Positions 3,661 to 53,903 of a DNA stretch of 64,000 nucleotides are shown here, piece by piece (the first letter of the stretch is position 1; each line of letters begins with the position of its first letter). The translations under genes were made by a program, and so were the position numbers. The stretch is from a virus. The notes under the pieces are model-generated. The model was not told the origin of the DNA. It saw nothing but the letters and a program-made list of their open reading frames with translations, and did no database searches. The DNA lies in the IMG/VR virus record IMGVR_UViG_3300046001_007123. One strand, given 5' to 3'.

Positions 3661-4252
3661 TAATATAGAACAAATAAAAAAATTACTCAACTTCGAAAAT
3701 AAGGGTGACTTTTATATGCTTTACGTTCTTAAACGTAAGAAGGACCAACCTGAGGGGGAAAGAGATAATCACCAGTCAGTTAGAACAATTAAATCATATT
3801 GTATTGAGTCCATTGAACATTTGGATCGTAGATACGATGAGATTAAACAACTTTGTGAGATGTTTAAGGCTCGTGCTTATATCCACGTCCAAAAACAAAA
3901 TCATACGGACGTGTCATTGAATATGATGGTTGATCTTGCTAAAAGAATACAAGACGGTAATCATAAACAACAAGGTTTATTTGATTCTGTTGTGGGACAA
4001 GTTAAAACACAAGAGAAACGCTGGATTGTCGATATCGATACGACCGATTATCACGCTGTTACTGAAGTGACACAATTTATAACCAGCCTCAGACCTGAAG
4101 GTCCAAAGGTTGAAATGGTAATCCCAACTAAAAATGGATACCATTTAATAACTGCTAGATTTGATGTTAAAACCTTTTCTGAAAAATATCCGGAAATTAG
4201 TATTCAAAAAAAGAATCCGACACTACTTTATTTACCAAACGTTCTTTCGTGA
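3644..4252 (+). CDS. hypothetical protein
   Basis: 202-aa ORF. No motif recognised. Confidence 0.45.
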   Translation: MTNKIDNIEQIKKLLNFENKGDFYMLYVLKRKKDQPEGERDNHQSVRTIKSYCIESIEHLDRRYDEIKQLCEMFKARAYIHVQKQNHTDVSLNMMVDLAKRIQDGNHKQQGLFDSVVGQVKTQEKRWIVDIDTTDYHAVTEVTQFITSLRPEGPKVEMVIPTKNGYHLITARFDVKTFSEKYPEISIQKKNPTLLYLPNVLS

Positions 4253-4977
4253 TATTTATGGGTATGATAGGAATATACAAAATTACCAACCCAAAAAATA
4301 AAGTCTATATTGGACAAAGTGTTAATATTGAAGAAAGGTTTAAAAAATATATTAAATTAAATTGCCCATCTCAAACAAAATTACTGAATTCACTAAAAAA
4401 ATATGGTATTGATAGTCACAAATTTGAAATTATTGAAGAATGTTTGTTGGAAAACTTGAATGATCGAGAGAGGTATTGGCAAGATTACTATAACGTTTTA
4501 GAGGAAGGGTTGAATTTAATAAAAACCAAAACAGACACTAAAAGTGGTTATTTATCTGAAGAAACTAAAAATAAAATAAAAACATCCATGTTAGGTAAAA
4601 AAATACATAGTGATGAGTACAAGGAAAAGTTAAGACAAAGAATGTTAACAAACAACCCAAACAATATTGAGGGGGTTAGGGAAAAAATAATAAAGAATAA
4701 AACAGGAAAAAAACAACCTAAAATTTCTGAATCTAAAAAAGGTAAAAAACGTCCAGATATTTCTGGTGAAAAAAGTTTTTTTTACAAAAATAGACCCGCA
4801 AATGCTGGAACACCAAAAAAGGAAATTATACAAATTGACAAATTAACTAATGAGATTATCCAAATTTTTCCAAGTATAAGCGAGGCAATGAGAAAAACAA
4901 ATATAAAAGGAATTAAAGATTGCCTATCAAATAGACAAAAAACATCTGGAGGTTTTATTTGGAAATATCTAAATTAA
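4249..4977 (+). CDS. GIY-YIG homing endonuclease (I-TevI/Seg-like)
   Basis: GIYKITNPKNKVYIGQS...ERFKKY forms the GIY-YIG motif. Three NUMOD3-like basic repeats follow (TKNKIKTSMLGKK, REKIIKNKTGKKQ, SESKKGKKRPD). The C-terminal IQIFPSISEAMRKTNIKGIKDCLSNRQKTSGGFIWKY is an IENR1/NUMOD1-like HTH. Confidence 0.85.
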   Translation: MIFMGMIGIYKITNPKNKVYIGQSVNIEERFKKYIKLNCPSQTKLLNSLKKYGIDSHKFEIIEECLLENLNDRERYWQDYYNVLEEGLNLIKTKTDTKSGYLSEETKNKIKTSMLGKKIHSDEYKEKLRQRMLTNNPNNIEGVREKIIKNKTGKKQPKISESKKGKKRPDISGEKSFFYKNRPANAGTPKKEIIQIDKLTNEIIQIFPSISEAMRKTNIKGIKDCLSNRQKTSGGFIWKYLN

Positions 4978-4984
4978 TAATATA

Positions 4985-5350
4985 ATGAAAATCAACAGAC
5001 AAGAAGTTTATGATAAGTGTTCAGGTCATTGCGCTTATTGTGGAATTGAAATAACATTCAAACAGATGCAAGTGGATCACATAAAACCATTATATCGTAA
5101 TGATAAAGTTGAGACACTTGAGGCTTGGGGTGTTGAACGAGGAACAGATGAGATGGACAATTTAAATCCATCCTGTTCTCGTTGTAATAAATGGAAATCA
5201 ACATTCAGTTTAGAGATGTTTAGAACCATAGTCGAAAACTCTATCGATAGAATGGAGAGAGATACTCCTAATTTCAGATTAGCTCGTGATTACGGACTTA
5301 TTGAAGTCAAACAAAATCCTGTGGTTTTTTACTTTGAACGAAAGAATTAG
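4985..5350 (+). CDS. HNH homing endonuclease
   Basis: CSGHCAYCG ... DHIKP ... N ... CSRCNKWK: two Cys pairs flanking the His-Asn-His core. Confidence 0.8.
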   Translation: MKINRQEVYDKCSGHCAYCGIEITFKQMQVDHIKPLYRNDKVETLEAWGVERGTDEMDNLNPSCSRCNKWKSTFSLEMFRTIVENSIDRMERDTPNFRLARDYGLIEVKQNPVVFYFERKN

Positions 5351-15731: not shown

Positions 15732-17642
15732 ATGAAATTAATTAAGGGGTTAATCCTTACAATGTTATTATCACTACCTTTTATAGGGTTATCACAAGTA
15801 CCTTCAGCACCATCTAATGGTTTGTGGGGTATCATTGCGTCTCAATATCAGATTGGGACTTCAGCACAAGGGTCAACAACCGCCAAAATTACACTACAAA
15901 ATACAACCCTAACAAAATTCGCTGGGGTTCAGCTTAGAGTATTTTATGATAAGGTAGCATTTACAAATGCAACGGTATCTTTGATAGGATCAACAACAAA
16001 CTTAGATCTTCAATATGTGACTAACACTGCGAATGGTTACATTACAATGACATTAAGTTACACTGGTCCAAGTTCTACGTACACTATACCAAACGGTGAA
16101 AAATTCTTAATCACATTTACTCACGCTCCAGCATCAACATTTAATAACTTATCAACAATAAGTAACTTAACTTGGACAGGAGTTCAAACGTTTACACCAT
16201 ACGCCGCAAAACAAGATGGTATGGATACAACTTTGAGTGTTCATAACTATGGTGGTGTGTTTACACCTGTAAACTTTGATTACCACGGAACATTTACAAA
16301 CGTAACTGGTACAGGAGCTAAAACATTAACTTTAGCGTTAGAGAAAAAACCATCAGGTGGATCAACTTGGACACAACATTCTGTTTATGTTACGGATAAT
16401 AACGGAGACTTTAATATTTCGGTTCCATTGGATACGACATATTGGGACGTTCGTTTAGCTGTTAAAGGAGATACTATGGGTGTTGGTAATGTTGTATCAA
16501 CAACAGATGCTCAATTAATAAACCAATGGGTTTTGGGTAACGGAACAATGACAGGGTTTGATTACTATACTGCAGATGTTAACGGATCTAACAACACAAC
16601 AATCTCAGACGTTTGGGGTGTGTTTGGTAGAGTTTCAGGAAGATTTACATCTTGGCCTAACAATACAAAAGATGTTAAATTCTTTACGTCAACGGAATAT
16701 ACGACAATTAATGGTTCGTCAACTAACTACACCTCATCAATTGCTGGTGTAACTAACTTTACATTTGATATCCTACCGGGTCAACCTGATTCAGTTGTTT
16801 ATTATGTGATGGTACCGGGTGATGCAAATGGGACAGGATATAATATGGCTCGTATAACCCCTATTGAGGTAGTGGTTGGTCCAATACCTGGTTTAGAAAA
16901 TCAAATATACAATGTTATTGACACTAAAGTGGAATACGATTTCCCAACACAATCTATTGAAATAAATGTTCCTAATATCTCAGTTCAGGCTGGTAACTTA
17001 GTTGAACTTCCTGTGAGTGTTATAACAAATGGAATTGAATTAAGTTCATTACAATTTGGTTTGAAATACAATGACACCTTATTACAATTTAAAGGTATTA
17101 CATCATCAGCCGAGGCAATGAAATGGATTTCATACGTTAACCCTAACGACAACGAGATTGAATGGGGAGGGTTTGATCCTACAAATAATGACAACACATT
17201 AAAAGATGGTAATCAAGTTGTTATAATACAATTCTTGGCGTTACAACCACAGAACTTATGGGATGCAAGTCCTTTGTACACTAATAGAAAATTTGCTGGA
17301 ACTACATACTCAAGTGATTTGTCTTTAACACCAACTAACGGAATCCTTCAGGTATTAAAAATGGAAGGTGGAAACATCTTGAACGATAACAATATGGAAG
17401 TATATCCTAATCCATATCAAGACGAAGTTACAATCACATTCAAAGTTGAGGAGACAACAAACGCAACACTATCGGTATATGATTTAGTTGGTAGAAAGTT
17501 AGTTACAATATTAGACACACAAATACCTGATGGGATTTATAACTACACTAAAAACTTAGGTGAGTTAGAACCAGGGGTTTACATAGTTAAACTTAGTGTT
17601 GAGAACGGAGTTCCATCATTCGAAAGAATAATTAAACAATAA
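15732..17642 (+). CDS. secreted protein with type IX secretion system C-terminal sorting domain
   Basis: Signal peptide MKLIKGLILTMLLSLPFIGLSQ. Thr/Asn-rich beta-rich body. The last 85 aa (VYPNPYQDEVTITF...LSVYDLVGRKL...GVYIVKLSVENG) match the Por/T9SS CTD. Confidence 0.75.
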   Translation: MKLIKGLILTMLLSLPFIGLSQVPSAPSNGLWGIIASQYQIGTSAQGSTTAKITLQNTTLTKFAGVQLRVFYDKVAFTNATVSLIGSTTNLDLQYVTNTANGYITMTLSYTGPSSTYTIPNGEKFLITFTHAPASTFNNLSTISNLTWTGVQTFTPYAAKQDGMDTTLSVHNYGGVFTPVNFDYHGTFTNVTGTGAKTLTLALEKKPSGGSTWTQHSVYVTDNNGDFNISVPLDTTYWDVRLAVKGDTMGVGNVVSTTDAQLINQWVLGNGTMTGFDYYTADVNGSNNTTISDVWGVFGRVSGRFTSWPNNTKDVKFFTSTEYTTINGSSTNYTSSIAGVTNFTFDILPGQPDSVVYYVMVPGDANGTGYNMARITPIEVVVGPIPGLENQIYNVIDTKVEYDFPTQSIEINVPNISVQAGNLVELPVSVITNGIELSSLQFGLKYNDTLLQFKGITSSAEAMKWISYVNPNDNEIEWGGFDPTNNDNTLKDGNQVVIIQFLALQPQNLWDASPLYTNRKFAGTTYSSDLSLTPTNGILQVLKMEGGNILNDNNMEVYPNPYQDEVTITFKVEETTNATLSVYDLVGRKLVTILDTQIPDGIYNYTKNLGELEPGVYIVKLSVENGVPSFERIIKQ

Positions 17643-19054: not shown

Positions 19055-20667
19055 AACTAAATGTATTCATATTATTGTTTTATTGCGTGTTTGGGTTCTT
19101 TAACCTGAATGCGCAATCTTACAATTATAGTTACTCTGATCCCTGTACGGGAAATCTTAAAACTATAGTCATACCGATAAATGGAAACGTAATAGTTTCA
19201 TACTACGGTGAAACGGGATCGTTTAGTCAAAACGATTTTACAAACGGGACATTTGAATCTTGGACTAATAACATATTTTCACAATATGGAACAAATAGTC
19301 CTTGCTCTGAAATAATAGGTTTGGGTACGGCAATTAACATAACCCAAGGAACAGCATTAAACGTAATCGGAATTCTTAATTCATTATCCACAATCTCAGA
19401 TTTAGCGGGGGGATCCACAAATTTAATAGGTGGGTCTGTAACTACTATTAATAATACAGGGAATGGAAATTCAAAGGGTAACGATAAGAAGGGGAATAAA
19501 TCCCAAAATGGAAGTGGAAATAATACTACAAATAATAATACCACAACCAATAATACTCAAAATCAAACGAATGGAACAGGTAACTCTACTCAAGGAGGTA
19601 CAACCACTTCTGGAACAAATGAAGGAGGTACAAACGGAGGAAATGGAACCACTAGTCAAAATGTTGGAACTCAAAATCCAACACAAGCAGGAGGAACTAC
19701 AACTCAAGGTGGATCAAATGAAACTGGAAATCAATCGACTAACCCGACTATAAATGGGGGAACTCAAACAACAGAACCAAATGGTGGTGGTCAAACAACT
19801 GAAACACCAATAAACAATCAAACAACAAGTGGAAATGGAAATAGTAGTAGTGAGCCTGGGAATGGGTCTAATGGTGGGGCAGGGAATAACGGGACTGGTT
19901 CGGGAAGTAATAAACCTGAGGAAAATAAAACTCCTGAAACAGGAAAAGAAGAAGGTGGACAAACAAATATAACAGGTGGTGCAACCACAACGGTAAAGGC
20001 AACCCCAACTAGTAAAGAAGGTGGTAAACCCACAATAGTCGCTAGTGGTGACTTTGTTGGGTTTAACTTTAGAGATTCTGAAGTGAATACAGGGTTAAAA
20101 GTAACAGGTGGGTATACTGCAATGAGATGGGATGGTAAAAGAAGTTCGGGGGTTTTAGGTGACTATACTTCAGCCCTTAGAGGTCCTAATATAACTGCGT
20201 TCTATGCTTTTATTAGACCTAAATCAATTGTGATTGGTTCTGGAACACTAACCATTGGGTTTGAAGGTAATAAGTCATTATACGGTACGGTAGCAATAGG
20301 ACAAATGTTTACGTTTAAGAAACCTAAATCTCTTAAACTTCTTTATATGGGGACGGTATCTTATGGAAATGTTTATAGAGAATCATTTTTGGGGACTGCA
20401 TTAATTGTTGGGGGGACTTACGATATGAGGATAGGTAAACGAATAGATGTTAAATTAATGAATTTATTTGTTTACGCTCCGTATGTTAGTTACTATAATG
20501 ATGTTGTATTGAAATCTCCTTATGTGATGTTACCAAGTATTGGTACAAATATTAAAATTACAAAGAAGTTCAAATTCAACATAAACGCAGGTGGTGCTTG
20601 GGATTTAAAAACAAGTGCTTTAAATTATACGGTAACGTGTGGAGCAAGAATGTTAGTAGGACAATAA
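19051..20667 (+). CDS. secreted N/G/T/S-rich low-complexity protein with beta-rich C-terminal domain
   Basis: Signal peptide. A 200-aa GNGT/NTT low-complexity tract. The C-terminal 200 aa have alternating hydrophobic residues. It could be an outer-membrane beta-barrel. Confidence 0.5.
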   Translation: MKLNVFILLFYCVFGFFNLNAQSYNYSYSDPCTGNLKTIVIPINGNVIVSYYGETGSFSQNDFTNGTFESWTNNIFSQYGTNSPCSEIIGLGTAINITQGTALNVIGILNSLSTISDLAGGSTNLIGGSVTTINNTGNGNSKGNDKKGNKSQNGSGNNTTNNNTTTNNTQNQTNGTGNSTQGGTTTSGTNEGGTNGGNGTTSQNVGTQNPTQAGGTTTQGGSNETGNQSTNPTINGGTQTTEPNGGGQTTETPINNQTTSGNGNSSSEPGNGSNGGAGNNGTGSGSNKPEENKTPETGKEEGGQTNITGGATTTVKATPTSKEGGKPTIVASGDFVGFNFRDSEVNTGLKVTGGYTAMRWDGKRSSGVLGDYTSALRGPNITAFYAFIRPKSIVIGSGTLTIGFEGNKSLYGTVAIGQMFTFKKPKSLKLLYMGTVSYGNVYRESFLGTALIVGGTYDMRIGKRIDVKLMNLFVYAPYVSYYNDVVLKSPYVMLPSIGTNIKITKKFKFNINAGGAWDLKTSALNYTVTCGARMLVGQ

Positions 20668-20675
20668 TAACAATA

Positions 20676-21644
20676 ATGTTATTTGTGATTCCGTTTATGG
20701 GGTTTACTCAAACCTTTACATATTCGGGATACATTTATAATGCGGATGGAACAGGCGCGGTTAATGTACCTGTTAAGTTGTATAAAAGAACAACACCGGT
20801 AATGAATGGATTTACCAATCAACAAAACTTTAATGGGCACTCATATTATAGATCAACAGGGTCAATGACTTGGACGGACGCAAGACAAGCCTGTATTAAT
20901 ATGGGGGGACATTTAGTTACCTCAACATCATTAGCCGAAAACAATTTCCTATTCAGCCTTTGGCCAAATGGGTGGATCGGATTAACCGATGAGGTCAATG
21001 AAGGTGTGTGGAGATGGGTTACGGGTGAACCTTATTCTTGGTCGTATTGGAATAGTGGAGAACCAAACAATGCCGGTAACGAGGACTACATTCAATTCGT
21101 CGGAGGAGGTAGATGGAATGATTTACCTAACACATCATTACCATATGTTTTGGAGTTTGAATATATTGTGACTTTTACCCCTTGGGTGTTACATCAAACG
21201 GTTTACACTAACTCATCGGGGTACTATAACTTTTCACAACCGACAAGTCCTGCGGTTGAGTGGTACATACAATATGATGCTCCAACACCGGTAACTACAC
21301 TACAAACTACGGATATGGTAGAAGTTTCTAAATTAATATTAGGTGTTACACCAATTAAAAGTATTCATTACCACAGATATGATGTGAACTATGATGGGAG
21401 AATAAACGTTGCCGATCAAAATTATATTAATCTTAGACGATATGGTTTATTAGGGGGTTGGATTAATATGAGTCCATCCAGATTATATACAACCGCACAA
21501 TACACAACATTAACGACAAATACATCAGATCTAAGATCAACAATACCTGGTGTGTCATCAATAACAATAAACTCACCTGTAAGTGGGGGATCACAAAACT
21601 ATTATCTGATCGCTCCTGGGTATAAAACAACCGTATCATATTAA
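20676..21644 (+). CDS. secreted C-type lectin-domain protein with dockerin-like Ca-binding repeat
   Basis: Signal peptide MLFVIPFMGFTQT. CTLD signature WIGLTDEVNEGVWRWVTGEPYSWSYWNSGEPNN...EDYIQF...WNDLPN. DVNYDGRINVADQNYINLRRYGL matches the dockerin consensus DxNxDGxVNxxD. Confidence 0.65.
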   Translation: MLFVIPFMGFTQTFTYSGYIYNADGTGAVNVPVKLYKRTTPVMNGFTNQQNFNGHSYYRSTGSMTWTDARQACINMGGHLVTSTSLAENNFLFSLWPNGWIGLTDEVNEGVWRWVTGEPYSWSYWNSGEPNNAGNEDYIQFVGGGRWNDLPNTSLPYVLEFEYIVTFTPWVLHQTVYTNSSGYYNFSQPTSPAVEWYIQYDAPTPVTTLQTTDMVEVSKLILGVTPIKSIHYHRYDVNYDGRINVADQNYINLRRYGLLGGWINMSPSRLYTTAQYTTLTTNTSDLRSTIPGVSSITINSPVSGGSQNYYLIAPGYKTTVSY

Positions 21645-21645: not shown

Positions 21646-22239
21646 ATGAAAAATTTATTACTAACATTATTATTAACATTACCATTATTTGTTTTCAGTC
21701 AGAAAGCGTTAAGAGATTCCGTCTACATTAAAACAGATATGTTTGAGATTGTTTATTCTGAAAAATTACAACAACCAAAGTTCATTCGTTATACGGTACA
21801 ATGTCCCAATGGATCCGCACCAAGAAAAGGTATGGATTTCTATACTTGTGATTCGATACTGACATCTGACGATAAGGATTATGCGAACAACCCATATGAT
21901 AAAGGGCACTTAGCGCCCGCGGCAGATTTCAATTGTACTAAAGAATTACTATTCAAAACATTCACATACTTAAATTGTTCACTACAACAAGAGAACTTAA
22001 ATAGAACTACTTGGAGATTGTTAGAGGTTAGAGAAAGAGAATTGGCGAAGACAAATAAAAGTGTGATCGTTGAAATTCGTTGTGTTTATTCAACCAAATC
22101 AATTGTGTTACCAACAGGAGCTACGGTACCTGACGGATATTATAAGACAATTAAATACGGAAACAAAATCGAGAAATACTATTTCAAAAACGAGAAACCA
22201 TCAACAACCGACTTTACTAAATACCAAATTAAATTATGA
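21646..22239 (+). CDS. secreted DNA/RNA non-specific endonuclease (Serratia NucA/EndA family)
   Basis: Signal peptide followed by the DKGHLAPAADF active-site motif (DRGH-type). Confidence 0.75.
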   Translation: MKNLLLTLLLTLPLFVFSQKALRDSVYIKTDMFEIVYSEKLQQPKFIRYTVQCPNGSAPRKGMDFYTCDSILTSDDKDYANNPYDKGHLAPAADFNCTKELLFKTFTYLNCSLQQENLNRTTWRLLEVRERELAKTNKSVIVEIRCVYSTKSIVLPTGATVPDGYYKTIKYGNKIEKYYFKNEKPSTTDFTKYQIKL

Positions 22240-28319: not shown

Positions 28320-29047
28320 TGACACCAGGGCAAATGTGGGTTAAAAGAAGATATAAGGATCTTATAAGTGATGTTGAAGAGGCAACATCTCTCATAAATG
28401 TTGAGGATCATAAAGACTTCAAAGACTATGCTACTGAAGTATATGATTCGGCTTTAGATATCTATATGTCACATACTGACCACGAGTTAGATAATTTTTG
28501 GGACATATATAGTAGTATAATGGATTCAATGGAAGATATTTTTAATGATCAGTTGAAAGATTATTACGGTAATTCTGAAGAAACCCTAAATGAAAACTTT
28601 GATCAGATTCTTGATTTATACAAAAAAGTTAAGGAAGGCGAAAAGTTAAAACCATCCGAACAATCTATGATGAGGTCGTTTAAAAATTTTGTTGATAAAG
28701 GTGGTAACGCAGAAGAGTTTGTTTACGATCTTGATCAAGAGATGATGCCAGATGAAAGAGAGGGTGAAAGATTTAGATGGGAAAGACACGGAACTCCTTT
28801 AACTTATGAGTTTTCCGAAGAATATGAATCAGATGGGGAAATAAATTACTTCGGTGAGATAAAATATATGGGCGATGAATTCCTTGGGGTTATCTCAACA
28901 GACAAAAGAGGTTATCTAACCGATTATGACTTTTATAGTGTGTTCGATGAAGAAGTTAGATTACAGGATATTTTAAAAGAAAATGGACTCGAACCTGAAA
29001 TAACCAACTTCTTTCAAGAAGAGATAATCAATTCATTAAGAAAATGA
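28316..29047 (+). CDS. hypothetical acidic protein
   Basis: 243-aa ORF with ATGA junction. Confidence 0.45.
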   Translation: MMTPGQMWVKRRYKDLISDVEEATSLINVEDHKDFKDYATEVYDSALDIYMSHTDHELDNFWDIYSSIMDSMEDIFNDQLKDYYGNSEETLNENFDQILDLYKKVKEGEKLKPSEQSMMRSFKNFVDKGGNAEEFVYDLDQEMMPDEREGERFRWERHGTPLTYEFSEEYESDGEINYFGEIKYMGDEFLGVISTDKRGYLTDYDFYSVFDEEVRLQDILKENGLEPEITNFFQEEIINSLRK

Positions 29048-29595
29048 AAATAGTTATCACGGAATCTCAAATGAGAATGGTGATTGAGAGTTCAAACAAA
29101 CCCACTCGTAAATCCGAAATTCTTAAAAAAATGTGGGATAAACAAACTAAAGAGAAAGGTTACCCGACTTTTGATGAAGATATCTTAGGTTATTTCGGTA
29201 TAGATAGATGGACGGATATTAGGGACTATGGTGAGTTCTTCAATGATTACATTGGCGGAGAAGAAAAAACTATGGAAATAATTGATAACTTATCAATTAA
29301 TAACTTCTCAACAAAAGATTTTCCTGAAATGTTTGTTGGTGGGTATGACTTTGATTGGAGAATCACTAATGTTTACGTAAAAGATGATGTTTATAAAATA
29401 GAGTGTCAAGTATCAGAAGGGGGATCTGTTACCACTATGGATGGTAGACACTTATCTTTAGAAGATGCTTTGAATGATGATGAGGTTGGATTTGAGATAC
29501 AGGGTGAAGTAAGTGGAGTTATACAAGATTGTTTAAACTCATTAATATATCCGAGAACGGGAATAAAGGTTTTAGTGTATTACGTGGAGATATGA
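29044..29595 (+). CDS. family-1 member (MKIVITESQMRMVIESSNK)
   Basis: Conserved N-terminal module. ATGA junctions on both sides. Confidence 0.55.
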   Translation: MKIVITESQMRMVIESSNKPTRKSEILKKMWDKQTKEKGYPTFDEDILGYFGIDRWTDIRDYGEFFNDYIGGEEKTMEIIDNLSINNFSTKDFPEMFVGGYDFDWRITNVYVKDDVYKIECQVSEGGSVTTMDGRHLSLEDALNDDEVGFEIQGEVSGVIQDCLNSLIYPRTGIKVLVYYVEI

Positions 29596-29963
29596 AAATA
29601 ATAATTACAGAATCACAATTAAAAACTATAACATTTCAAAATACGGTTGATATGTCATTTGACGATATCAAAAAAAAATGTAATAAGATGAACGAACTTG
29701 GCGCCGATGCCCCTGAGATTATTAGTTTTGATGTTTGTGATCAAATAGAGTCAATTTCAAAAGTTGAAGTTGTAAATGTGTATAAAACAAACAATATGAT
29801 TGAAATATCGATTATTGTTTATTACGAAACTATTTTTCAATCGTTAGATGTTGGTGGATTCCTCTATGAGTTAGAATATCATTTGAGAGAATATTTAGGG
29901 AAAGGGAACTTTAAGTTAAAACTACTTAATTCAATAAATACAAGAGAGGACTTTAACTGGTGA
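29592..29963 (+). CDS. family-1 member (MKIIITESQLKTITFQ)
   Basis: Start moved to the ATG overlapping the upstream TGA, where the conserved module begins. Confidence 0.55.
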   Translation: MKIIITESQLKTITFQNTVDMSFDDIKKKCNKMNELGADAPEIISFDVCDQIESISKVEVVNVYKTNNMIEISIIVYYETIFQSLDVGGFLYELEYHLREYLGKGNFKLKLLNSINTREDFNW

Positions 29964-30295
29964 TGAAAATAATAATAAGTGAAAATCAAATGATGAGTTT
30001 AAGGTTCAGACGAAGAGGTGTGGAACTTGATAAAATAAGTGATATAATTGAGTATCAAACTGAAATACAAGATCCTTGTAATTTTGATGATGGTGAAGAA
30101 TATGCGGATTTTTGTATAAACCAAGGAATTAGTTTTTATTATTGTGATGAAAATTATTGTGATGAAGATGATGAGGATTACAGAGAACCTTCTGATGAAA
30201 TGATTGAGGTTAGAGAAGAAGTTGAAACATACCTAAATAATAAGTACTATAATTATTTAGTTAATTTATGGGAAGAAGATGGAAATTGTGATTAA
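29963..30295 (+). CDS. family-1 member (MKIIISENQMMSLRFRRR)
   Basis: TGATG junction. Conserved module. Confidence 0.5.
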   Translation: MKIIISENQMMSLRFRRRGVELDKISDIIEYQTEIQDPCNFDDGEEYADFCINQGISFYYCDENYCDEDDEDYREPSDEMIEVREEVETYLNNKYYNYLVNLWEEDGNCD

Positions 30296-30296
30296 T

Positions 30297-30599
30297 ATGA
30301 AAATAATACTAACAGAAAAGCAGGCGGATAGAATATTCAAAGACGAGATTGTTTGTGAGAAATGTGAACACTCTTGGAATAAAGAGGAGGGTGATAGACA
30401 TCCATACCTTTGCCACGATTGTGGTTGGGACCTGAAGGAACAAAAATATGACAAAGAAAATCTTTATAAGTTTTGGAAGAAGAAATTATCTAAAGATCCT
30501 ATTGAGGAAAAATGGTCTGAAAAATATAAAAAATCAATAAATTGTAAAAACCCAAAAGGTTTTAGTCAGAAGGCTCATTGTCAAGGGAGAAAAAAATAA
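30297..30599 (+). CDS. family-1 member with Cys4 zinc ribbon (MKIILTEKQADRIF...CEKCEH...CHDCGW)
   Basis: Conserved module plus CxxC...CxxC. Confidence 0.5.
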   Translation: MKIILTEKQADRIFKDEIVCEKCEHSWNKEEGDRHPYLCHDCGWDLKEQKYDKENLYKFWKKKLSKDPIEEKWSEKYKKSINCKNPKGFSQKAHCQGRKK

Positions 30600-30606: not shown

Positions 30607-31164
30607 ATGAATTTAATTACATTTATAATACCATCGATTAATAGACCCACAATAGACAATACAATCCAATCCTTACTTAATCAAACTAACCCAAATTGGA
30701 GTTGTTTTGTTCTTTACGACGGAGTTGTCGGGAAAGAATTTAATGACCCAAGAATACGAACATTCAACATAGAAAAGTTAGGAGTAAAGGGGGAAAGACA
30801 CGGAAATGCTGGGTTAGTTAGAAATGAAGGGATTAAAATGTGTGAAACAGAATGGATTGGATTCTTAGATGATGATGATACAATACACGAAGATTATGTT
30901 AAAACACTTGTAGAAAAATACTTACAATATGATTTTGTTGTTTGGAGAATGAAAACAACCGACGGTAAGATATTTCCCGAACTTTCAAGAAACAATCTTA
31001 TTAGAAACCGAGTTGGTATATCAATATCGTTTAAGACTACAATACCTAATATGTTATTCGACACTAATGACGATGGTGAAGATTTTGAGTTTGTCGATAA
31101 ATTACAAAATACCACGAACAATTTTATAATTGCACCTGAGATCTATTATAACATTAGACACTAA
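30607..31164 (+). CDS. glycosyltransferase family 2 (GT-A fold)
   Basis: IIPSINRPTIDNTIQSLLNQT...GFLDDDDTIHEDY (DxD motif). Confidence 0.7.
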   Translation: MNLITFIIPSINRPTIDNTIQSLLNQTNPNWSCFVLYDGVVGKEFNDPRIRTFNIEKLGVKGERHGNAGLVRNEGIKMCETEWIGFLDDDDTIHEDYVKTLVEKYLQYDFVVWRMKTTDGKIFPELSRNNLIRNRVGISISFKTTIPNMLFDTNDDGEDFEFVDKLQNTTNNFIIAPEIYYNIRH

Positions 31165-31214
31165 AAACAATTTATTAAAATTAATTTTTTCCTATAGTTA
31201 TAATAAAAAAAGAT

Positions 31215-31961
31215 ATGGGAATGCCTTTAATTGAACAAAACGCTGGTTATGCTTTAGGTAATTTTATAATGTTAACACCAGGGATAAAAAGGTTATCGGA
31301 AAAGGTAGGTCATAAAATAGATGTTTTTTTCACAATACCTTACGTTAAAGATTGTTTTATTGATTGTGATTTTATGAATCACGTAGGTAAATTACGAAGA
31401 GAACCAACGTTCTCCTCAAAAATGATTAATCTAAATGTTCCAGATTACGAATACACATTTGAATTAATGGTTGGTGAAAAATGGACTGACAAATACCACA
31501 CATATGTTGATCCCGCAATTGAAATACCAAAGAATAACGGAGATTATTTATTGTTATTAAATGGTTTGGGTGGGTTATCACTTAACGATAATGATCCGAA
31601 ACCAAAATGGTACGGAAAGAAGGAAGTACCTGAAGAGATATACGACCTAATAAAAGAAAATAGTAACTTACCAATTTATTTCACGGGATCGGAATCAGAT
31701 ATGAAACAAAATCCTTGGATGGAAAAGATATGTGATAGAATTGAAATTGGTGATATCCGAAAATCATTATCATTAGTGAGAGATGCTAAAAAGATTATTT
31801 CTAACGATACTGGATTAGCACATTGTGCTGGTGCAATGAATAAAGATCTCTTAATACTTTGGAAAGATACTCCATTTATAAAAAATCAAAACCCCGGTAA
31901 AAATACAAGATACTCCCAAAAAGAAAGTTGGATAAAAGATATTAATGAATACTTAAGTTAA
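31215..31961 (+). CDS. GT9-like glycosyltransferase (heptosyltransferase fold)
   Basis: ISNDTGLAHCAGAMNKDLLILW resembles the GT9 NDSGxMHLAAA motif. Confidence 0.5.
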   Translation: MGMPLIEQNAGYALGNFIMLTPGIKRLSEKVGHKIDVFFTIPYVKDCFIDCDFMNHVGKLRREPTFSSKMINLNVPDYEYTFELMVGEKWTDKYHTYVDPAIEIPKNNGDYLLLLNGLGGLSLNDNDPKPKWYGKKEVPEEIYDLIKENSNLPIYFTGSESDMKQNPWMEKICDRIEIGDIRKSLSLVRDAKKIISNDTGLAHCAGAMNKDLLILWKDTPFIKNQNPGKNTRYSQKESWIKDINEYLS

Positions 31962-32581
31962 TGCACATTATAACATTTTACGATAAAAAGATAAAACCAT
32001 TAGTTGTTGATTTACAACAAAAAGTTTTTAATAAATATGGTTTCACAATTAACCAAATTATGGTTGAGAATTGGACAACACACGGAGATGCGGTTGACAA
32101 TTATTTGAAAGACATATATGACCCTGAAGAGATAATTGTTTTATTTGACATTGATGCAATACCATTAAATAAAAAAATAATACCACTTGCAGTTGAATGG
32201 GCTAAAAATAACGTTGGATTATTTGGTAATGCTCAAGTGGCTTCTAAATTAAAACCACCACATAACAAATTTATTTTTGCGGCACCATCATTCTTAGTTT
32301 TTAGTATAAGAACATATAATGAGTTAGGGAGACCATCCTTCAATACGACTAACAGATCGGATTGTGCTGGAGAACTTTCTCACATTGCGACGGAAAATGA
32401 GATGTCAATTAATTTATTATTTCCTAATCACGCTGAAATACCAAATGTTAAACTTGATGAGAATCATAGTTTTGGGTATGGAACAACATATGGTAACAAT
32501 ACGTACCACGCATTTGAATCTAGGTTCGGTAAAAAAGATGTATTCTTTATTAATAAATGTAATTCAATATTAGGGGTATGA
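31961..32581 (+). CDS. hypothetical protein (possible glycosyltransferase accessory)
   Basis: 206-aa ORF inside the GT cluster. It contains a DxD-like LFDIDAIP. Confidence 0.4.
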   Translation: MHIITFYDKKIKPLVVDLQQKVFNKYGFTINQIMVENWTTHGDAVDNYLKDIYDPEEIIVLFDIDAIPLNKKIIPLAVEWAKNNVGLFGNAQVASKLKPPHNKFIFAAPSFLVFSIRTYNELGRPSFNTTNRSDCAGELSHIATENEMSINLLFPNHAEIPNVKLDENHSFGYGTTYGNNTYHAFESRFGKKDVFFINKCNSILGV

Positions 32582-33276
32582 TTATGGAATATGATTTTTG
32601 TGTTTTAATTACAACCTACAATAGATCGGAGATGCTTTATAAGTTATTGGACGATATTGATCGTAATAAAAAAGATTATAAAATATTAGTTGCGGTCTTT
32701 GATGATGGGTCGACTGAAAAAATAGATTTGTCAGGAAGAGATGTTATTAAAATAGGTATGTTTCCAAATATGGGTAAGAAGAAATATTACGTTACATACA
32801 ACGCAACCTTTAGTTTTGTTAAAAACGTAAATTCAAAGTATTTTATTTATTTACCTGACGATATTTCTTTAGTAGATAACTTTTTTGATGAAACCAAAAG
32901 ATTATACGAATCGATAGACTCGACTAAAAAAATATGTTTAAGTATATTAACTGACGATAGGGTTAATAAATCACATTGGGGTTATAAAAACCCAAAAGAT
33001 TTAGGTGAGGTTTTGCGGACACAATGGAATGACCTATGTTTCATATGTGAGAAGAATTTCTTTGAATTACTTGATTATAGGGTTAATGCGATTAGCGAAA
33101 AAAGATGGATTAATGATCCGCTAATAAGTTCTGGTGTTGGTCATCAAATCACCCAAAGACTTAATAGTAGTGGTAAATTTTTGTATCACGTAAAAAAATC
33201 ATTAGTGTATCACGGAGTTCACGAATCCAAAATGAATAAAAACGAAAGAAAAAAGAATAATTTAATCACAATATGA
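32578..33276 (+). CDS. glycosyltransferase family 2
   Basis: FCVLITTYNRSEMLYKLLDDI...VFDDGS. Confidence 0.65.
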   Translation: MIMEYDFCVLITTYNRSEMLYKLLDDIDRNKKDYKILVAVFDDGSTEKIDLSGRDVIKIGMFPNMGKKKYYVTYNATFSFVKNVNSKYFIYLPDDISLVDNFFDETKRLYESIDSTKKICLSILTDDRVNKSHWGYKNPKDLGEVLRTQWNDLCFICEKNFFELLDYRVNAISEKRWINDPLISSGVGHQITQRLNSSGKFLYHVKKSLVYHGVHESKMNKNERKKNNLITI

Positions 33277-34175
33277 GTGAAAAAAGAATAGTTAGTGTTG
33301 CGTCTTACAAAAGAATAGATAGTTTGGTTAAAACAATCGATTCAATTTATGATCAGTGTGATGAGATTAATATATTTTTAAATGATCACGAAGGGGAAAT
33401 TCCCCCTCAATTTTTAGATGAAAAAATAAACTTATATTTTTCCGATAATAGGTATGGGGACGCACTAAAGTTTGCAAAATTAATTGATTCGGACGGTTAT
33501 TACCTTACAATAGATGACGACTTAATTTACCCACCAAACTACGTTGACCATATGATCACAAGGTGTAAAGAGTTTTCAAATAAGAGGGTTATAACCCTAC
33601 ACGGAAGAAAGTTTTCTAAAGAACCAATAAAATCATTTTATAGTTCTTACATTGAATTTTATCATTGTCTTAGACATCAAAAAAGAGACGCGTTTATACA
33701 TTTTGGAGGCACTGGTGTTATGTGTTTTCATACAAGTTTAATGAAAATACCAATCACATATTTTGAACATCCAAATATGGCAGACGTATGGGTTGGTAAG
33801 TATTGTATTGAAAATAATATTGAAGTATTATCAATTGCTCACGAGAAAGATTTCTTGACATACCAACCACAAACAACAACGATATTTGATACTCATTCTA
33901 ACTCAGATACAATACAAACAAAAATAGTAAATGATTTGTTTAACCCAAGTAAGGAGGTAAACGTGGTAATAGAAACACCACCTATTCATACTAAAATAGA
34001 AAAAACTATAGAAAAGAGCCAAAAAACTTTAAATTATGAAATGGTAAACAAAATATTTGGGAACCAACACCACTCCACGCCCAAATCGATTAAACCCGTC
34101 CAAACCCAACAAACAAGACCTTCAGGTAATGTCCATATGTTAAGTAAAATAATGGGTAAAAAAAGAGGTAGATGA
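33273..34175 (+). CDS. GT-A-like glycosyltransferase
   Basis: SVASYKRIDSLVKTIDSIYDQ... followed by TIDDDLIYP. Confidence 0.55.
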   Translation: MSEKRIVSVASYKRIDSLVKTIDSIYDQCDEINIFLNDHEGEIPPQFLDEKINLYFSDNRYGDALKFAKLIDSDGYYLTIDDDLIYPPNYVDHMITRCKEFSNKRVITLHGRKFSKEPIKSFYSSYIEFYHCLRHQKRDAFIHFGGTGVMCFHTSLMKIPITYFEHPNMADVWVGKYCIENNIEVLSIAHEKDFLTYQPQTTTIFDTHSNSDTIQTKIVNDLFNPSKEVNVVIETPPIHTKIEKTIEKSQKTLNYEMVNKIFGNQHHSTPKSIKPVQTQQTRPSGNVHMLSKIMGKKRGR

Positions 34176-35131
34176 GTTTAAGTGTAATTATACCTACATA
34201 TGATAATGTGGATTTTTTGGATGAACTATTCGACTCAATTAAAAAAAATCAAGCTAACTTCCCCTTTGAGGTTTTAGTAGGTATTGATAATTGCGAAAAA
34301 ACAAAAGAATATATTAAAGATAAAACCTTCCCACCTAATTTCTTCTTTTTTTTCTTTTTGGAAAATGTTGGACCATATAAGATAAAAAATACTTTGTCTG
34401 AAATATCAAAATATGATAATTTATTTTTCTTTGATTCCGATGATGTTATGACGGAAAGTTGTTTATCTGAATTAAATAGTTTGACCTTAAAATATGAATG
34501 TGTCAAACCCAAATTTATAAACTTTAGAGATAATAATTTTGGTAGGGATTATAAAGACGAAAAGGGGCTTTACGGGGAAGGAGTATTCGCAATAAGAAAG
34601 AACTTATTTCTTGCAATGAATGGATTTGAGGGTTGGAGATGTGCTGCTGATTCGGATTTTATGGGTAGATTATATAGGATGAAAAGAAAAATTAATTTAA
34701 CAAGTAATATATTATTTCATAGACGACTACACCCAAAAAGTTTAACATTAAGTAATGAAACGGGGTATGCCTCCCAAATACGAGGTAAATATTTTAGAAT
34801 GTCAAAAAATAAAACTAATTTCGGTCCATTGACGATATTAGAGAAGGCTGACTACCAAATGTTGGATAATACTACGATTGAGTGGTCAGAATCAATTTCT
34901 GTGATAGAACAAAATGAAGTTGATCTGATAAAAGATCTAAAAGATAAGAAGCACCGATTATTAGAAACAATCTTCCAAAACCTACCAAAAGAAGTTAAAC
35001 CAAAAGAAGTTAAGGTGATTGATTATAATAGGGTGAATCAGAATAGTAATACCCAAACAACGAATACTTTAAATAATGCCCTGAAAAAGGCCAAATTAGA
35101 AAACCTCAAAAAAAATTATGGAAGAAGATAG
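34172..35131 (+). CDS. glycosyltransferase family 2 with internal poly-T tract
   Basis: LSVIIPTYDNVDFLDELFDSIKKNQ...FFDSDDVM. Codons 57-63 are FFFFFFL, encoded by TTCTTCTTTTTTTTCTTTTTG. Confidence 0.65.
   Translation: MSLSVIIPTYDNVDFLDELFDSIKKNQANFPFEVLVGIDNCEKTKEYIKDKTFPPNFFFFFFLENVGPYKIKNTLSEISKYDNLFFFDSDDVMTESCLSELNSLTLKYECVKPKFINFRDNNFGRDYKDEKGLYGEGVFAIRKNLFLAMNGFEGWRCAADSDFMGRLYRMKRKINLTSNILFHRRLHPKSLTLSNETGYASQIRGKYFRMSKNKTNFGPLTILEKADYQMLDNTTIEWSESISVIEQNEVDLIKDLKDKKHRLLETIFQNLPKEVKPKEVKVIDYNRVNQNSNTQTTNTLNNALKKAKLENLKKNYGRR
34340..34360 (+). repeat. T-rich homopolymeric tract (including T8) inside the GT2 CDS
   Basis: ttcttcttttttttctttttg. A possible slipped-strand site. Confidence 0.6.
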
Positions 35132-35162: not shown

Positions 35163-35522
35163 ATGGAACACAGCTTAAAAATAGGGAGAGCAATTAAATG
35201 TACGGATATTAAGTTTGTTAAAAAATTAATTAAGAAAAAAGGAATTGAATTCCAAGGAAGATTCCAAAGACCTAATGATTGTACCATCAAGGTAGTTAAT
35301 ATTCGAAAATATCAAAACTTATATTACTCTGATAAATGTGTTTACGAGGTGGACGTTACTGTTAAACTTAATGAATACTACTACACTTACTTTAATAGAA
35401 GAAATAACATCCACGCAAATAAACGAATTAGAAACTACCAAAATATAACGGATCTTTTAAATGAACTAGTTTATTTTAACATTAAGGATATACAAATTTC
35501 AAAAATTACTTTTGAACAGTAA
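35163..35522 (+). CDS. hypothetical basic protein
   Basis: 119-aa ORF. Confidence 0.4.
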   Translation: MEHSLKIGRAIKCTDIKFVKKLIKKKGIEFQGRFQRPNDCTIKVVNIRKYQNLYYSDKCVYEVDVTVKLNEYYYTYFNRRNNIHANKRIRNYQNITDLLNELVYFNIKDIQISKITFEQ

Positions 35523-35527
35523 TTGAT

Positions 35528-35540
35528 TATATTTATTAAT
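35528..35540 (+). promoter_or_regulatory. TATATTTATTAAT box abutting ATG
   Basis: The same 13-mer also sits immediately before ATG 48462 and, at a short distance, before ATG 45194. Near variants precede 53915, 44667 and 54787. Confidence 0.4.
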
Positions 35541-36452
35541 ATGAAATTATCAATAACTGAGCAACAATATAAGATCATACAATCTCGATTAAATTATAAT
35601 CAAGTACTTGAGGAGATGGTATTTAAACTTTCCATCCTTACTGAAGATGAAGAAAGACAACCCGATATGGAGTGGGATTTCACTGAAGTTAAAAATGAGT
35701 TAGACCTTTCAAAACTATGGGTTAAGACCAAAGAAGACGCAAAAGAATATCTATCCAACTTAAAAGAAAAGATTAAAAACCTACCAAGTGATTTAAAAAA
35801 AAGAATATTAAAATATGTTCTATATTCTTTCTTAGGGTTATTATCGTTAAACCAAATCAACAATTACTTAGAAACACCATTACAGAATGTTGTTAAAACA
35901 GAGAAGAAGATTTTTAAATCTATGGAGATCCCAAGGATTCGAAAATCTTCTGAAGGGATCTTTAACCATTTAAAAAGAGAGGAAGGGTCTGTTAGACATA
36001 AAGGCGAACCGATTTTAACAGCATACGACATTGGTGACGGAGCATATACAATAGGATATGGTCACGCAATATTTCCAGGTGAAGATGAGGGTTATGAATT
36101 CTTACCTAACTACAATGATATCGTACCAGGTCAAACTGCAATAACCAAAAAAAATGCTGAAACATTACTTAAAAATGATATCATTGAAGCTGAAGGTATC
36201 ATAAATAAAATTTTAGATGATTGGGAGAAAAAAGGTATTAAAACAAAAATAACGCAAGGTATGTATGATGCGATGGTGTCAATGGCATACAATATGGGTA
36301 GTGGAATTAGGAAAAGTGATTTCATACAAGCGGTTAAAAGAGGTGATTTAGAAGGAGCCAAAGAATTGATCCTTCAGACAAGTTCACATATGTTTGATAA
36401 ATTCCCTGGCCTTGAGGTGAGAAGGAATAATGAATATAATATGTTTGTATGA
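35541..36452 (+). CDS. GH24 (T4-type) lysozyme with family-1 N-terminal module and internal TM segment
   Basis: N-terminus MKLSITEQQYKIIQSRL (family-1 module). TM segment ILKYVLYSFLGLLSL. Lysozyme core YTIGYGH...ITKKNAETLLKNDI...MYDAMVSMAYNMG...GLEVRRNNEYNMF aligns with the T4 e lysozyme. Confidence 0.75.
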   Translation: MKLSITEQQYKIIQSRLNYNQVLEEMVFKLSILTEDEERQPDMEWDFTEVKNELDLSKLWVKTKEDAKEYLSNLKEKIKNLPSDLKKRILKYVLYSFLGLLSLNQINNYLETPLQNVVKTEKKIFKSMEIPRIRKSSEGIFNHLKREEGSVRHKGEPILTAYDIGDGAYTIGYGHAIFPGEDEGYEFLPNYNDIVPGQTAITKKNAETLLKNDIIEAEGIINKILDDWEKKGIKTKITQGMYDAMVSMAYNMGSGIRKSDFIQAVKRGDLEGAKELILQTSSHMFDKFPGLEVRRNNEYNMFV

Positions 36453-37722: not shown

Positions 37723-37751
37723 TATAATTTTCGTACAACACAAAACTATAA

Positions 37752-37782
37752 AATCCCTACATAATTGTGGGGATTTTTCTTT
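37752..37782 (+). terminator. rho-independent terminator (AAATCCCTAC-loop-GTGGGGATTTTT)
   Basis: GC stem plus T-run. Belongs to the ATCC..GGGGAT terminator type. Confidence 0.65.
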
Positions 37783-44504: not shown

Positions 44505-44612
44505 AGTCAGGTGGCGGAATTGGTAACGTACATATAATGAGAGTTCTGCAGGCTCGCCCGAAAAGTAAGTTATATGGTGGTATAAATACAGGTTCGAATC
44601 CTGTCCTGACTA
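44505..44612 (+). ncRNA. tRNA-derived element A (tRNA-Leu-type acceptor/D arm and T arm/acceptor; 57-nt non-tRNA centre)
   Basis: 5' AGTCAGGTGGCGGAATTGGTAACG ... 3' ACAGGTTCGAATCCTGTCCTGACTA. The centre contains a 7-bp CATATAA/TTATATG stem and will not fold as an anticodon arm. Confidence 0.5.
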
Positions 44613-53426: not shown

Positions 53427-53903
53427 ATGAAAATCATTATCACAGAATCTCAATTAAATCTATTTCTTAATGAAGAATCATTAAAACAGAATCTACTATC
53501 TCAGATTGAGGAGAACGGGTGGGCTGAAACCGCCGAACTTGTTGGGTATAAAAACCTTTTAAACATTGTTGGTTATGATAAGTTGGTTGACTTATTGATT
53601 TCCTCTTTTAATGATTTAAATGTAATAACAAGGGGTCGTAATGTAATCTTACGTGATAACCACCTCCCATTAATGGAAACAACTAAAGATGTATTTGGGG
53701 ATAATTGGGTAATGGTATATAACGATCATATTATATTGAGACTCGAACTTAGATTGGGTTCCGACATTTTAGAAATTTATGAAAAAGTAAGAAGGGAATT
53801 CATTAGGGAACTAATAAATAGATTTCCTGAATTATCTGGACAAAAAGTTGAGGTCTTTAAAGACAGCGGACTTTATCAAAAATACGATTCATTTGAGTTA
53901 TAA
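53427..53903 (+). CDS. family-1 member (MKIIITESQLNLFLNEES)
   Basis: 158 aa. GTATTTATTTATAT-ATG leader. Confidence 0.55.
   Translation: MKIIITESQLNLFLNEESLKQNLLSQIEENGWAETAELVGYKNLLNIVGYDKLVDLLISSFNDLNVITRGRNVILRDNHLPLMETTKDVFGDNWVMVYNDHIILRLELRLGSDILEIYEKVRREFIRELINRFPELSGQKVEVFKDSGLYQKYDSFEL

Follow-up and report, generated by a model that had tools for sequence, protein, structure and literature searches.

Blocks of many glycosyltransferase genes recur in large aquatic phages, and for none of them has the acceptor been established by experiment. A cyanomyovirus is described that encodes 13 glycosyltransferases and an RmlC protein (PMC12801897). The moraphages, jumbo phages of fresh water that infect Bacteroidota and have T4-like structural genes, count among their core genes four orthogroups of putative glycosyltransferases, each present in at least 80% of genomes, whose function is left open (PMC12619734, Arch Virol 2025). 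Here we describe a cassette of six such genes (G1 to G6) in a 64,000-nucleotide (nt) stretch of viral DNA, IMG/VR record IMGVR_UViG_3300046001_007123 ('the window'). A preliminary description of the window had recognized six contiguous sugar-transfer genes, which we recover at exactly the same positions. It had also stressed how large this sugar-transfer capacity is for a phage, which is true but has precedents in the two studies above, and it had proposed DNA hypermodification, virion glycosylation or seroconversion of the host surface polysaccharide, the same three candidate roles that are named in PMC12619734. Blocks of this type have therefore been reported before from big phages of aquatic habitats, and large aquatic myoviruses are known to have some that are accompanied by a lone RmlC. 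What is new, also with respect to PMC12619734, is a corrected family map (a viral GT45 enzyme, a compact GT9 enzyme and an orphan GT-A enzyme), the modular slot structure of the cassette, the C-terminal tails common to two of its enzymes, and an argument against DNA modification that includes restriction-site avoidance. The block is best explained as a modular, autonomous assembly line for glycans in a lytic T4-like jumbo phage. From its gene content we tentatively favour as acceptor a protein made by the phage, with a virion component as the likeliest candidate, and DNA seems unlikely to be the molecule on which the sugar chain is made.

The six open reading frames (ORFs) are packed on the + strand as a single, translationally coupled operon (Table 1). 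G2 and G3 overlap by 1 nt, G3/G4, G4/G5 and G5/G6 by 4 nt each, and the sole intergenic space is the 50 nt between G1 and G2. The GC content of the cassette is 0.29-0.30, compared with a window mean of ~0.32. Because the block is kept in dozens of metagenomic relatives, it is genuine rather than a run of chance ORFs. Sequence and fold comparisons identify all six products as glycosyltransferase-like, each by its own line of evidence, G4 being the weakest call, and four fold or family types are represented: GT2, GT45/KfiA-like, compact GT9-like and orphan GT-A. Neither signal peptides nor membrane spans were found in G1 to G6, the maximum 19-residue Kyte-Doolittle mean being no higher than 1.35.

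Table 1. Positions of the features discussed in the text, numbered along the window except in the L001 row, which refers to that relative. Gathering thresholds are 23.3 bits for PF00535 and 22 bits for PF01075.
Feature	Position	Strand	Basis or detail
G1, minimal GT2 (GT-A), 185 aa	30607-31164	+	PF00535 9e-15, 55.4 bits (above threshold)
G2, compact GT9-like GT-B, 248 aa	31215-31961	+	PF01075 1.5e-4, 21.6 bits (just under threshold)
G3, orphan GT-A, 206 aa	31961-32581	+	Invariant DxD (D63, D65), H41, Q92 and H183 in alignment of homologues
G4, probable GT-A, 232 aa	32578-33276	+	PF00535 5e-4 (20.4 bits) and TIGR04440 4e-9, both below cutoff
G5, GT45-type (KfiA/heparosan-synthase C-domain-like), 300 aa	33273-34175	+	Profile against PDB
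G6, GT2, 319 aa	34172-35131	+	PF00535 3e-11, 44.0 bits (above threshold)
C-terminal tail of G5	34029-34172	+	Conserved
C-terminal tail of G6, G5-type	35018-35128	+	
Tail of G6 paralogue in L001	9864-9998		
RmlC-family cupin (dTDP-4-dehydrorhamnose 3,5-epimerase-like), 165 aa	24249..24746	+	PF00908 6.7e-35; PDB RmlC 3e-23
Thymidylate synthase, 415 aa	10423-11670		Canonical ThyA with two insertions (~residues 220-265 and 328-383)
Four small genes (starts 29044, 29592, 29963, 30297), N-terminus MK[IL]x[ILV][ST]ExQ	29044..30599	+	Motif scan; directly upstream of cassette, probably co-transcribed
Right flank: 119-aa protein and lysozyme-domain protein (likely start 35541, N-terminus MKLSITEQQ)	35163..36452	+	PF00959 1.8e-18; synteny in all relatives; motif scan
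Strong intrinsic-terminator-like hairpin	37750..37777	+	12-bp stem and T-run

Three or four of the enzymes had initially been counted as GT2. This holds for G1 and G6, which pass the PF00535 threshold, but not for G4, a probable GT-A enzyme that falls below it, nor for G5 (2.7e-3, 18.1 bits, likewise below), which is a GT45 enzyme. G1 carries the metal/nucleotide motif FLDDDDT (LDDDD), conserved in its orthologues; its best solved relative is TarP (6h1j, 4.7e-7), and its PHROG match to GtrB-like proteins is weak (4e-6) and confined to the N-terminus. In G6 the corresponding motif is FFDSDDV (DSDD), again conserved in orthologues. A profile built from seven G6 orthologues matches TarS at 5.5e-14 and, over the whole catalytic domain, the GT2 domain of the Pasteurella enzyme PmHS2, a heparosan synthase (residues 37-234), at 7.7e-12, the nearest solved relatives being TarS, the PmHS2 GT2 half, K4CP and PglI. 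Phase variation through the FFFFFF run of G6 was considered and rejected, since the run is written in mixed TTC/TTT codons and contains no homopolymer. G4 has a GT2-like first strand (CVLITTYNR) and a conserved YLPDD motif (YLPDDIS), and hhalign aligns it to G6 with 78% probability over the N-terminal 45 residues only; on these sequence features it is probably a GT-A enzyme. Both G4 and G6 are predicted to be basic overall (isoelectric points of ~8.8 and ~9.0).

The profile of G5 matches residues 310-527 of PmHS2 at 3e-29 and residues 7-198 of Escherichia coli K5 KfiA at 3e-18, and its DDD motif (TIDDDLIYP) aligns with that of KfiA/PmHS (TIDDDLIYPPNY with TCDDDIIYPSDY). At least 299 homologues were found. 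These profile matches identify G5 as a KfiA-type GT45 enzyme, predicted to be a retaining HexNAc (N-acetylhexosamine)-transferase-like protein and not a GT2 enzyme. No UDP-glucose dehydrogenase or Kps gene was found in the window.

The assignment of a GT9-like gene stood up as the compact G2, for which GT9 is closest by fold. Its family comprises 71 homologues of ~225-250 aa, ~40 of which carry a precomputed PF01075 match. In the AlphaFold2 model (predicted local distance difference test, pLDDT, 94.6), the top 23 Foldseek matches in the PDB are all GT9 proteins, among them 3tov (a Veillonella GT9), WaaC, WaaF and the protein heptosyltransferase TibC, with E-values of 1e-7 to 3e-4 and TM-scores of 0.5-0.66 (query) and 0.4-0.5 (target). 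G2 is shorter than full-size GT9 enzymes, which reach ~320-350 aa with a complete acceptor-binding N-domain, and the model identifies it as a shortened GT9-like GT-B enzyme. Heptose-synthesis genes were not seen alongside it. G3 had been left unassigned, and it indeed has no Pfam, PHROG or NCBIfam match; by fold and by its DxD motif it can now be placed as an orphan GT-A enzyme. Its model (pLDDT 95.9) has GT-A fold neighbours that include LH3, Fringe, Mimivirus R699 and STIV A197, and together with 59 homologues it identifies G3 as a divergent GT-A glycosyltransferase outside any assigned family. PHROG matches were likewise lacking for all of G2 to G6 and for ten large neighbouring proteins.

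G5, G6 and a G6 paralogue (G6') have in common a C-terminal tail that consists of the motif I-N-Y-x-K-V-N-x-I-F, 25-35 polar residues and a polybasic end, the last 15 residues of G5 and G6 carrying a charge of +5 to +6. Of 118 G5 homologues, 102 have the motif and 117 the polybasic end. In a search across loci only G5, G6 and G6' proteins were found to carry the motif, and all four cassettes checked (the window and the relatives L001, L007 and L024) encode two tail-bearing enzymes. This suggests recruitment of the tail-bearing enzymes to a common site or partner; docking to the membrane, to the capsid or to each other are the possibilities. A membrane-binding amphipathic helix was not retained as an explanation, since the hydrophobic moment of the tails (0.43-0.57) is comparable to controls and is not decisive.

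Comparison of the relatives shows fixed flanks around a variable block. All retain a small zinc-ribbon-like protein on the left, and the 119-aa protein and the lysozyme-domain protein on the right. G6 is the sole cassette gene in every relative examined (orthologues L001-L024); G3, G4 and usually G5 occur in most, and slot 1 and G2 are swapped among sister phages. Slot 1 is occupied by G1 in the window and L024, by a 292-aa RgpF-family protein (PF05045) in L019-L021 and the L001 clade, and by a reverse-strand 193-aa GT2-like gene in L007-L010 and L017. G2 is absent from L024 and from the L001 clade, and in the latter G2 to G5 are exchanged for RgpF, two unassigned proteins and the G6 paralogue. 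In L018, G5 is missing and G4 and G6 form a single 565-aa fusion (11361-13058), while L012 encodes an 805-aa protein with repeated G6-type domains (9359-11776). The G4-G6 fusion and the multi-G6 proteins therefore argue that the enzymes act in one pathway.

An RmlC-like epimerase cupin outside the cassette, also reported in the preliminary description, was confirmed (Table 1). Compared with the RmlC proteins in the PDB it retains the catalytic motifs RGLHFQ, AQAKL (AKL) and FAHGF (HGF) and the Tyr. Its TIGR01221 score of 100 bits lies below the NCBIfam equivalog cutoff of 155.75, and at 165 aa it is shorter than most solved RmlC proteins (~180 aa; range 176-211 aa). RmlA, RmlB and RmlD were not found in the window plus 20 kb of flanks (~84 kb). 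To judge from these motifs, the cupin probably supplies a 6-deoxyhexose donor. It is present in most relatives and absent from the L007-L010 clade. A correlation between RmlC and the cassette was considered, since the only clade without RmlC is one whose slot-1 gene lies on the reverse strand; the idea was dropped, as L017 combines such a gene with RmlC.

A near-identity DNA search of the region against 50,697 deposited phage genomes gave essentially no match. The same locus is borne by contigs from IMG/VR and metagenomes that reach 272-318 kb, and proteins identical to those of the window are encoded by lake contigs as long as 120 kb. The window represents a lytic, T4-like freshwater jumbo phage of Bacteroidota. 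It probably belongs to the moraphage lineage, to which it is likened by description and sample series and not by sequence; the samples of PMC12619734 and one relative of the window come from one BioSample series (SAMN083310xx). Since four glycosyltransferase orthogroups occur in at least 80% of this likely parent lineage (PMC12619734), the cassette behaves as core rather than as a moron.

The hairpin to the right of the cassette probably ends a transcription unit of ~11.7 kb that includes it, and no terminator-like site of matching strength was found between ~26.0 and 37.7 kb. Eight otherwise unrelated proteins of the window open with MK[IL]x[ILV][ST]ExQ: the products of the four small genes upstream of the cassette, the lysozyme-domain protein, and those starting at 53427, 54303 and 57947. 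Five of the eight genes, that of the lysozyme-domain protein included, fall in the ~11.7-kb unit. The orthologue of the 30297 gene adjoins the cassette in all relatives and is 75-80% conserved, and the L001 orthologues retain the motif at their start. These N-termini resemble the 10-residue capsid-targeting sequence of T4, and they close in I-[TS]-E, which fits the L/I-x-E cleavage rule of the T4 gp21 prohead protease (PMC9026906). On this sequence likeness the motif is a candidate T4-type capsid-targeting propeptide, and the proteins that carry it, including the lysozyme-domain one, may be internal head proteins that are packaged or injected. Because the cassette has its unit in common with five capsid-targeting-like genes, late expression, at the time of head assembly, is suggested. 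Sigma-70-like promoters were no more frequent than in shuffled sequence, and the T4-type late promoter TATAAATA, found at 25 sites against 13.6 expected, was not retained as evidence. Six of the nine + strand copies of TATAAATA are intergenic, one of them (26019) heading the cassette's unit; this position is kept only in L019, and the sequence is absent upstream of the capsid gene of UFOVP699, a T4-like jumbo phage.

How might such a block work? The six soluble Leloir-type enzymes would act in succession in the cytoplasm of the infected cell, drawing on host nucleotide sugars and on a 6-deoxyhexose donor made with the aid of the phage RmlC-like epimerase, and they would make a short polymer or hetero-oligosaccharide that contains HexNAc. 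With the same C-terminal docking tail, G5 and G6 would work side by side on one chain. The glycan would be attached late, at particle assembly, as in mycobacteriophages, chloroviruses and mimiviruses, and cassette swaps would alter the outer sugars of the particle coat. Pfam scans of the ~84 kb revealed no priming phosphoglycosyltransferase, flippase, ABC transporter, polymerase or ligase, and because the block encodes glycosyltransferases alone, without priming or export genes, it is self-sufficient only with a cytoplasmic acceptor. Virion glycosylation is further supported by distant phages that place the G3 family within or beside virion modules. In UFOVP699 (L023, LR796670.1, 6411-13858) the G3 homologue lies in a nonulosonic-acid-type cluster, together with genes for a CMP-sugar synthetase, a GT29 sialyltransferase-like protein, a methyltransferase, GT25 and NeuB, and this cluster is wedged between the Gp23/prohead-protease/DnaJ genes and baseplate genes; in the cyanophage S-SRM01 the G3 homologue adjoins tail-fibre and baseplate genes.

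Several observations weigh against a virion acceptor, which we favour only tentatively. The system is known here from its genes alone, and glycosylation sites are not predictable from sequence. Save for generic GT2 matches and one cyanophage match, the six proteins match nothing in the 50,697 phage genomes; for G2 to G6 tblastn gave no similarity to actinophages, among them those with proven virion glycosylation, and G1 matches only TarP-like GT2 enzymes. The enzyme families are those of bacterial surface polysaccharides (KfiA/PmHS, TarS/TarP, lipopolysaccharide (LPS) heptosyltransferases and, in sister cassettes, RgpF), and a 33%-identical G3 homologue stands directly after Wzm/Wzt in a Flavobacteriaceae polysaccharide locus. 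The same phage is rich in host-envelope-type genes (type IX secretion system (T9SS) cargo, a TonB-dependent receptor and a lectin). Finally, the capsid-targeting role of the N-terminal motif is itself only a candidate one, and the idea of T4-type late promoters failed. Enzyme ancestry alone is not decisive, because giant viruses glycosylate their virions with bacterial-type polysaccharide enzymes.

The same enzyme families make remodelling of the host envelope a quite possible alternative, which we rank a narrow second. Here the six enzymes would dock at the host inner membrane and extend or rebuild an undecaprenyl-linked glycan that the host then exports, such as an ABC-transporter-type O-antigen or capsule, the LPS core, or the outer part of the Bacteroidota general O-glycan; the purpose could be, for example, receptor masking against competing phages or avoiding the loss of progeny on debris. 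Of the seroconversion first proposed, the classical Gtr type finds no support in a block without membrane spans, GtrA or GtrC, so that it is the non-Gtr form that stays a candidate. It draws on the homology of G5 to the capsule polymerase domains of KfiA and PmHS2, on the closeness of G6 to TarS, the PmHS2 GT2 half, K4CP and PglI, on the LPS-heptosyltransferase fold of G2 and on the RgpF protein in slot 1 of sister phages. The polysaccharide locus mentioned above, from Formosa sp. L2A11 (L030, NZ_CP047028.1, 5716-16185), encodes a Wzm-like permease and Wzt (ABC and Wzt_C domains), immediately followed by the G3 homologue, and further includes GDP-mannose dehydratase (GMD), UDP-glucose dehydrogenase (Ugd), several GT2 enzymes, GT4, and sulfotransferase-like and acetyltransferase-like proteins. 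Moreover, the polybasic tails of G5 and G6 could bind anionic lipid, the T9SS cargo, C-type lectin, secreted nuclease and TonB-dependent receptor make envelope remodelling a theme of the genome, and similar cyanophage clusters are read in this way in the literature (PMC12801897). However, with no priming transferase, flippase, ABC transporter or ligase in the ~84 kb, compatible machinery would be needed in every host. Core glycosyltransferases kept across a divergent lytic lineage are unusual for surface-conversion morons and fit strain-variable acceptors poorly; late expression, suggested by the probable co-transcription with genes of head-targeted proteins, would hardly leave time to replace the surface glycan; and the hydrophobic moment of the tails, comparable to that of controls, is not decisive.

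Some other cytoplasmic acceptor seems unlikely. It could be a host protein or small molecule (modified in host takeover or in a toxin-like action) or a phage protein outside the virion; or the product could be a polysaccharide, free or secreted, that is bound neither to the virion nor to the envelope. The acceptor is not fixed by the gene sequences, and GT9 includes protein heptosyltransferases such as TibC, but six sequential transferases with an epimerase and swaps of terminal enzymes typify structural glycans and not a single-hit modification, and there is no phage precedent.

It is doubtful, too, that G5 and G6, joined by their common tail, constitute an alternating co-polymerase of a heparosan-like (glycosaminoglycan-type) or other disaccharide-repeat polysaccharide. 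In such an arrangement G3 and G4 would prime the chain, the slot-1 enzyme and G2 would cap or branch it, and the polymer would coat either the particle, by analogy with Mimivirus fibrils (a 'capsulated' phage), or the infected cell, by analogy with chlorovirus hyaluronan. If true, it would give bacteriophages their first demonstrated polysaccharide polymerase system.

DNA hypermodification would add the sugar chain to hydroxymethylated or hydroxylated pyrimidines and so block restriction, in the style of the T-even phages, of RB69/DLP3 or of the MT-TET-GT systems. Documented phage DNA glycans do reach three sugars and are made by LPS- and teichoic-acid-like glycosyltransferases; a variable cassette would suit an evolutionary arms race against glycan-specific nucleases; G4 and G6 have a basic character and the tails of G5 and G6 a polybasic one; and the genome exceeds 120 kb, of which ~84 kb were covered. 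Where DNA glycosylation is known in phages, it begins either with a thymidylate synthase (TS) homologue carrying N177D and L143D/E, or with a C5-methyltransferase and a TET-like dioxygenase (5-methylpyrimidine dioxygenase, 5mYOX) beside the glycosyltransferases. The sole TS homologue of the window (~1e-67 to bona fide ThyA) retains L143 (LPPCH) and N177 (PFNIASY), so it should be a normal dTMP synthase and not a hydroxymethylase or 5-hydroxycytosine (5hoC) synthase. Among ORFs of at least 100 aa in the ~84 kb we found no C5-methyltransferase, TET/JBP dioxygenase, hydroxymethylase or deoxynucleoside monophosphate kinase. In tblastn searches of the 50,697 phage genomes, G2 to G6 matched no DNA glycosyltransferase and gave only one weak match, that of G3 in a cyanophage; with no further match in deposited phages there is therefore none to a known DNA glycosyltransferase, an enzyme to which G1 bears no likeness either. 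Five or six transferases are, besides, more than any known DNA glycan needs.

Restriction sites provided further evidence on this point. CATG occurs at 4 sites in the 64 kb (4587, 11541, 50658 and 52787), against 195-217 expected, and in the flanks of the same phage at 1 against 60 and 4 against 57. At least two of the four surviving sites lie in probable recent arrivals, the GIY-YIG homing endonuclease gene and the second TS insertion. Sister phages that retain these core glycosyltransferases have lost other 4-bp palindromes: GTAC in L007 (0 against 28 expected) and CCGG in L001, L002, L007, L009 and L024 (1-3 against 8-20), while L012 again avoids CATG (6 against 44). Because this lineage-specific loss would be pointless under blanket hypermodification, the DNA appears to be exposed to host restriction enzymes; purging of sites is a signature of cuttable DNA and implies, as far as site counts can tell, host-specific type II restriction pressure on unmodified DNA. 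Overall, glycosylation of the phage DNA is very improbable, and we give it some residual weight only because a motif-restricted modification encoded outside the ~84 kb is conceivable.

The window also carries accessory genes, including those for GIY-YIG and HNH endonucleases, thymidylate synthase, an Acb3-like protein, ClpP, lysins and T5orf172. The GIY-YIG (with NUMOD1) and HNH homing-endonuclease genes are adjacent at 4249-5350, and lake contigs L032 and L033 have this pair too. The neighbour of the thymidylate synthase gene is a homologue of Acb3, an inhibitor of the cyclic-oligonucleotide-based anti-phage signalling system (CBASS) (11803-12495, PF25187 1.6e-30). The envelope-type proteins of the window (15732-17642, 20598-21644 and 21646-22239) are a T9SS cargo protein with cohesin and Por_Secre_tail domains, a C-type lectin with a dockerin-like segment, and a nuclease with a signal peptide; just outside it (L032 191-2752 and 2831-3826; L034 11734-13962) are an 853-aa TonB-dependent receptor, an SprB-like protein and a protein with PKD and CHU_C domains. 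An Rfam tRNA at 44505-44612 (+ strand) scores 43.6 bits against a gathering score of 29 bits. Its acceptor, D and T arms are intact, ~50 nt replace the 17-nt anticodon region and a terminator-like hairpin follows; ARAGORN reports no tRNA in the window. This tRNA may be intron-containing or disrupted.

The cassette offers a good test case: it is a core module of an abundant freshwater lineage with natural swap variants in sister phages, its KfiA-type enzyme, a viral one, and its orphan GT-A family lend themselves to biochemistry, and sequence evidence already allows DNA modification to be put aside. A glycan on the virion would take the protein glycosylation of phage particles past the actinophages to Gram-negative T4-like phages, with a bearing on adsorption, grazing and immune recognition. 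If the glycan is on the host envelope, this would be the first evidence of a strictly lytic phage rewriting a surface polysaccharide through the export machinery of its host.

Compared with known systems, the block differs from Gtr seroconversion, which has a membrane-anchored GtrB, a GtrA flippase and a polytopic GtrC, and from ABC-transporter polysaccharide loci, since Pfam scans of the phage found no Wzm/Wzt (present in the Formosa G3 locus), KpsMT or priming enzyme. Phage DNA glycosylation systems (T4 alpha/beta-GT; MT-5mYOX-GT, bioRxiv 10.1101/2023.12.21.572611; arabinosyl-5hoC in RB69/DLP3, PMC13326640) likewise use several glycosyltransferases and variable sugars, but the window has no base-activating enzyme and no sequence similarity to them, its TS is canonical and restriction sites are strongly avoided. 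There is also a resemblance to heparosan synthases: G5 corresponds to the GT45 half and G6 to the GT2 half of PmHS2, and their adjacent genes mirror KfiA/KfiC of E. coli K5. However, the G6 match is that of a generic GT2 enzyme (TarS scores equally), G5 is missing in some relatives, UDP-glucose dehydrogenase, KpsMT and KpsC/S are lacking from the phage block, and identities of ~30-35% are too low to read donor or acceptor specificity.

The T4-like cyanophages with cell-wall/LPS-type clusters (P-SSM2, S-SCSM1 and S-SCSM2R; PMC12801897) and S-SRM01 are large lytic myoviruses of aquatic habitats, too; they encode numerous glycosyltransferases, sugar epimerases and an RmlC that stands alone, and the role usually ascribed to their clusters is a change of the host surface. 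The distant G3 homologue of S-SRM01 (27% identity, 5e-11) lies in the tail-fibre/baseplate region. These phages differ in host phylum and in glycosyltransferase families, and beyond the weak G3 match tblastn shows no similarity. In mycobacteriophages (Freeman et al. 2023, as cited in PMC12619734), cytoplasmic glycosyltransferases are likewise encoded outside the structural module in sets that vary among relatives; capsid and tail-tube subunits are decorated, and according to that account the acceptor is proven there. They differ in their actinobacterial host, in their smaller sets and in having no sequence relationship to the window. The giant viruses (PBCV-1 A064R and its partners, Mimivirus fibril R655/R699 and the chlorovirus hyaluronan synthase) also possess autonomous multi-glycosyltransferase machineries with bacterial-type enzymes, which build rhamnose/HexNAc polymers on virion fibrils or a glycosaminoglycan on the infected cell, and whose clusters vary by clade; R699, R655 and the PBCV-1 enzyme are among the fold neighbours of G3. 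With the moraphages, to which it probably belongs, the window would have in common freshwater jumbo size (relatives reach 272-318 kb), T4-like head genes, Bacteroidota host signals (T9SS, TonB and SprB domains) and core glycosyltransferases.

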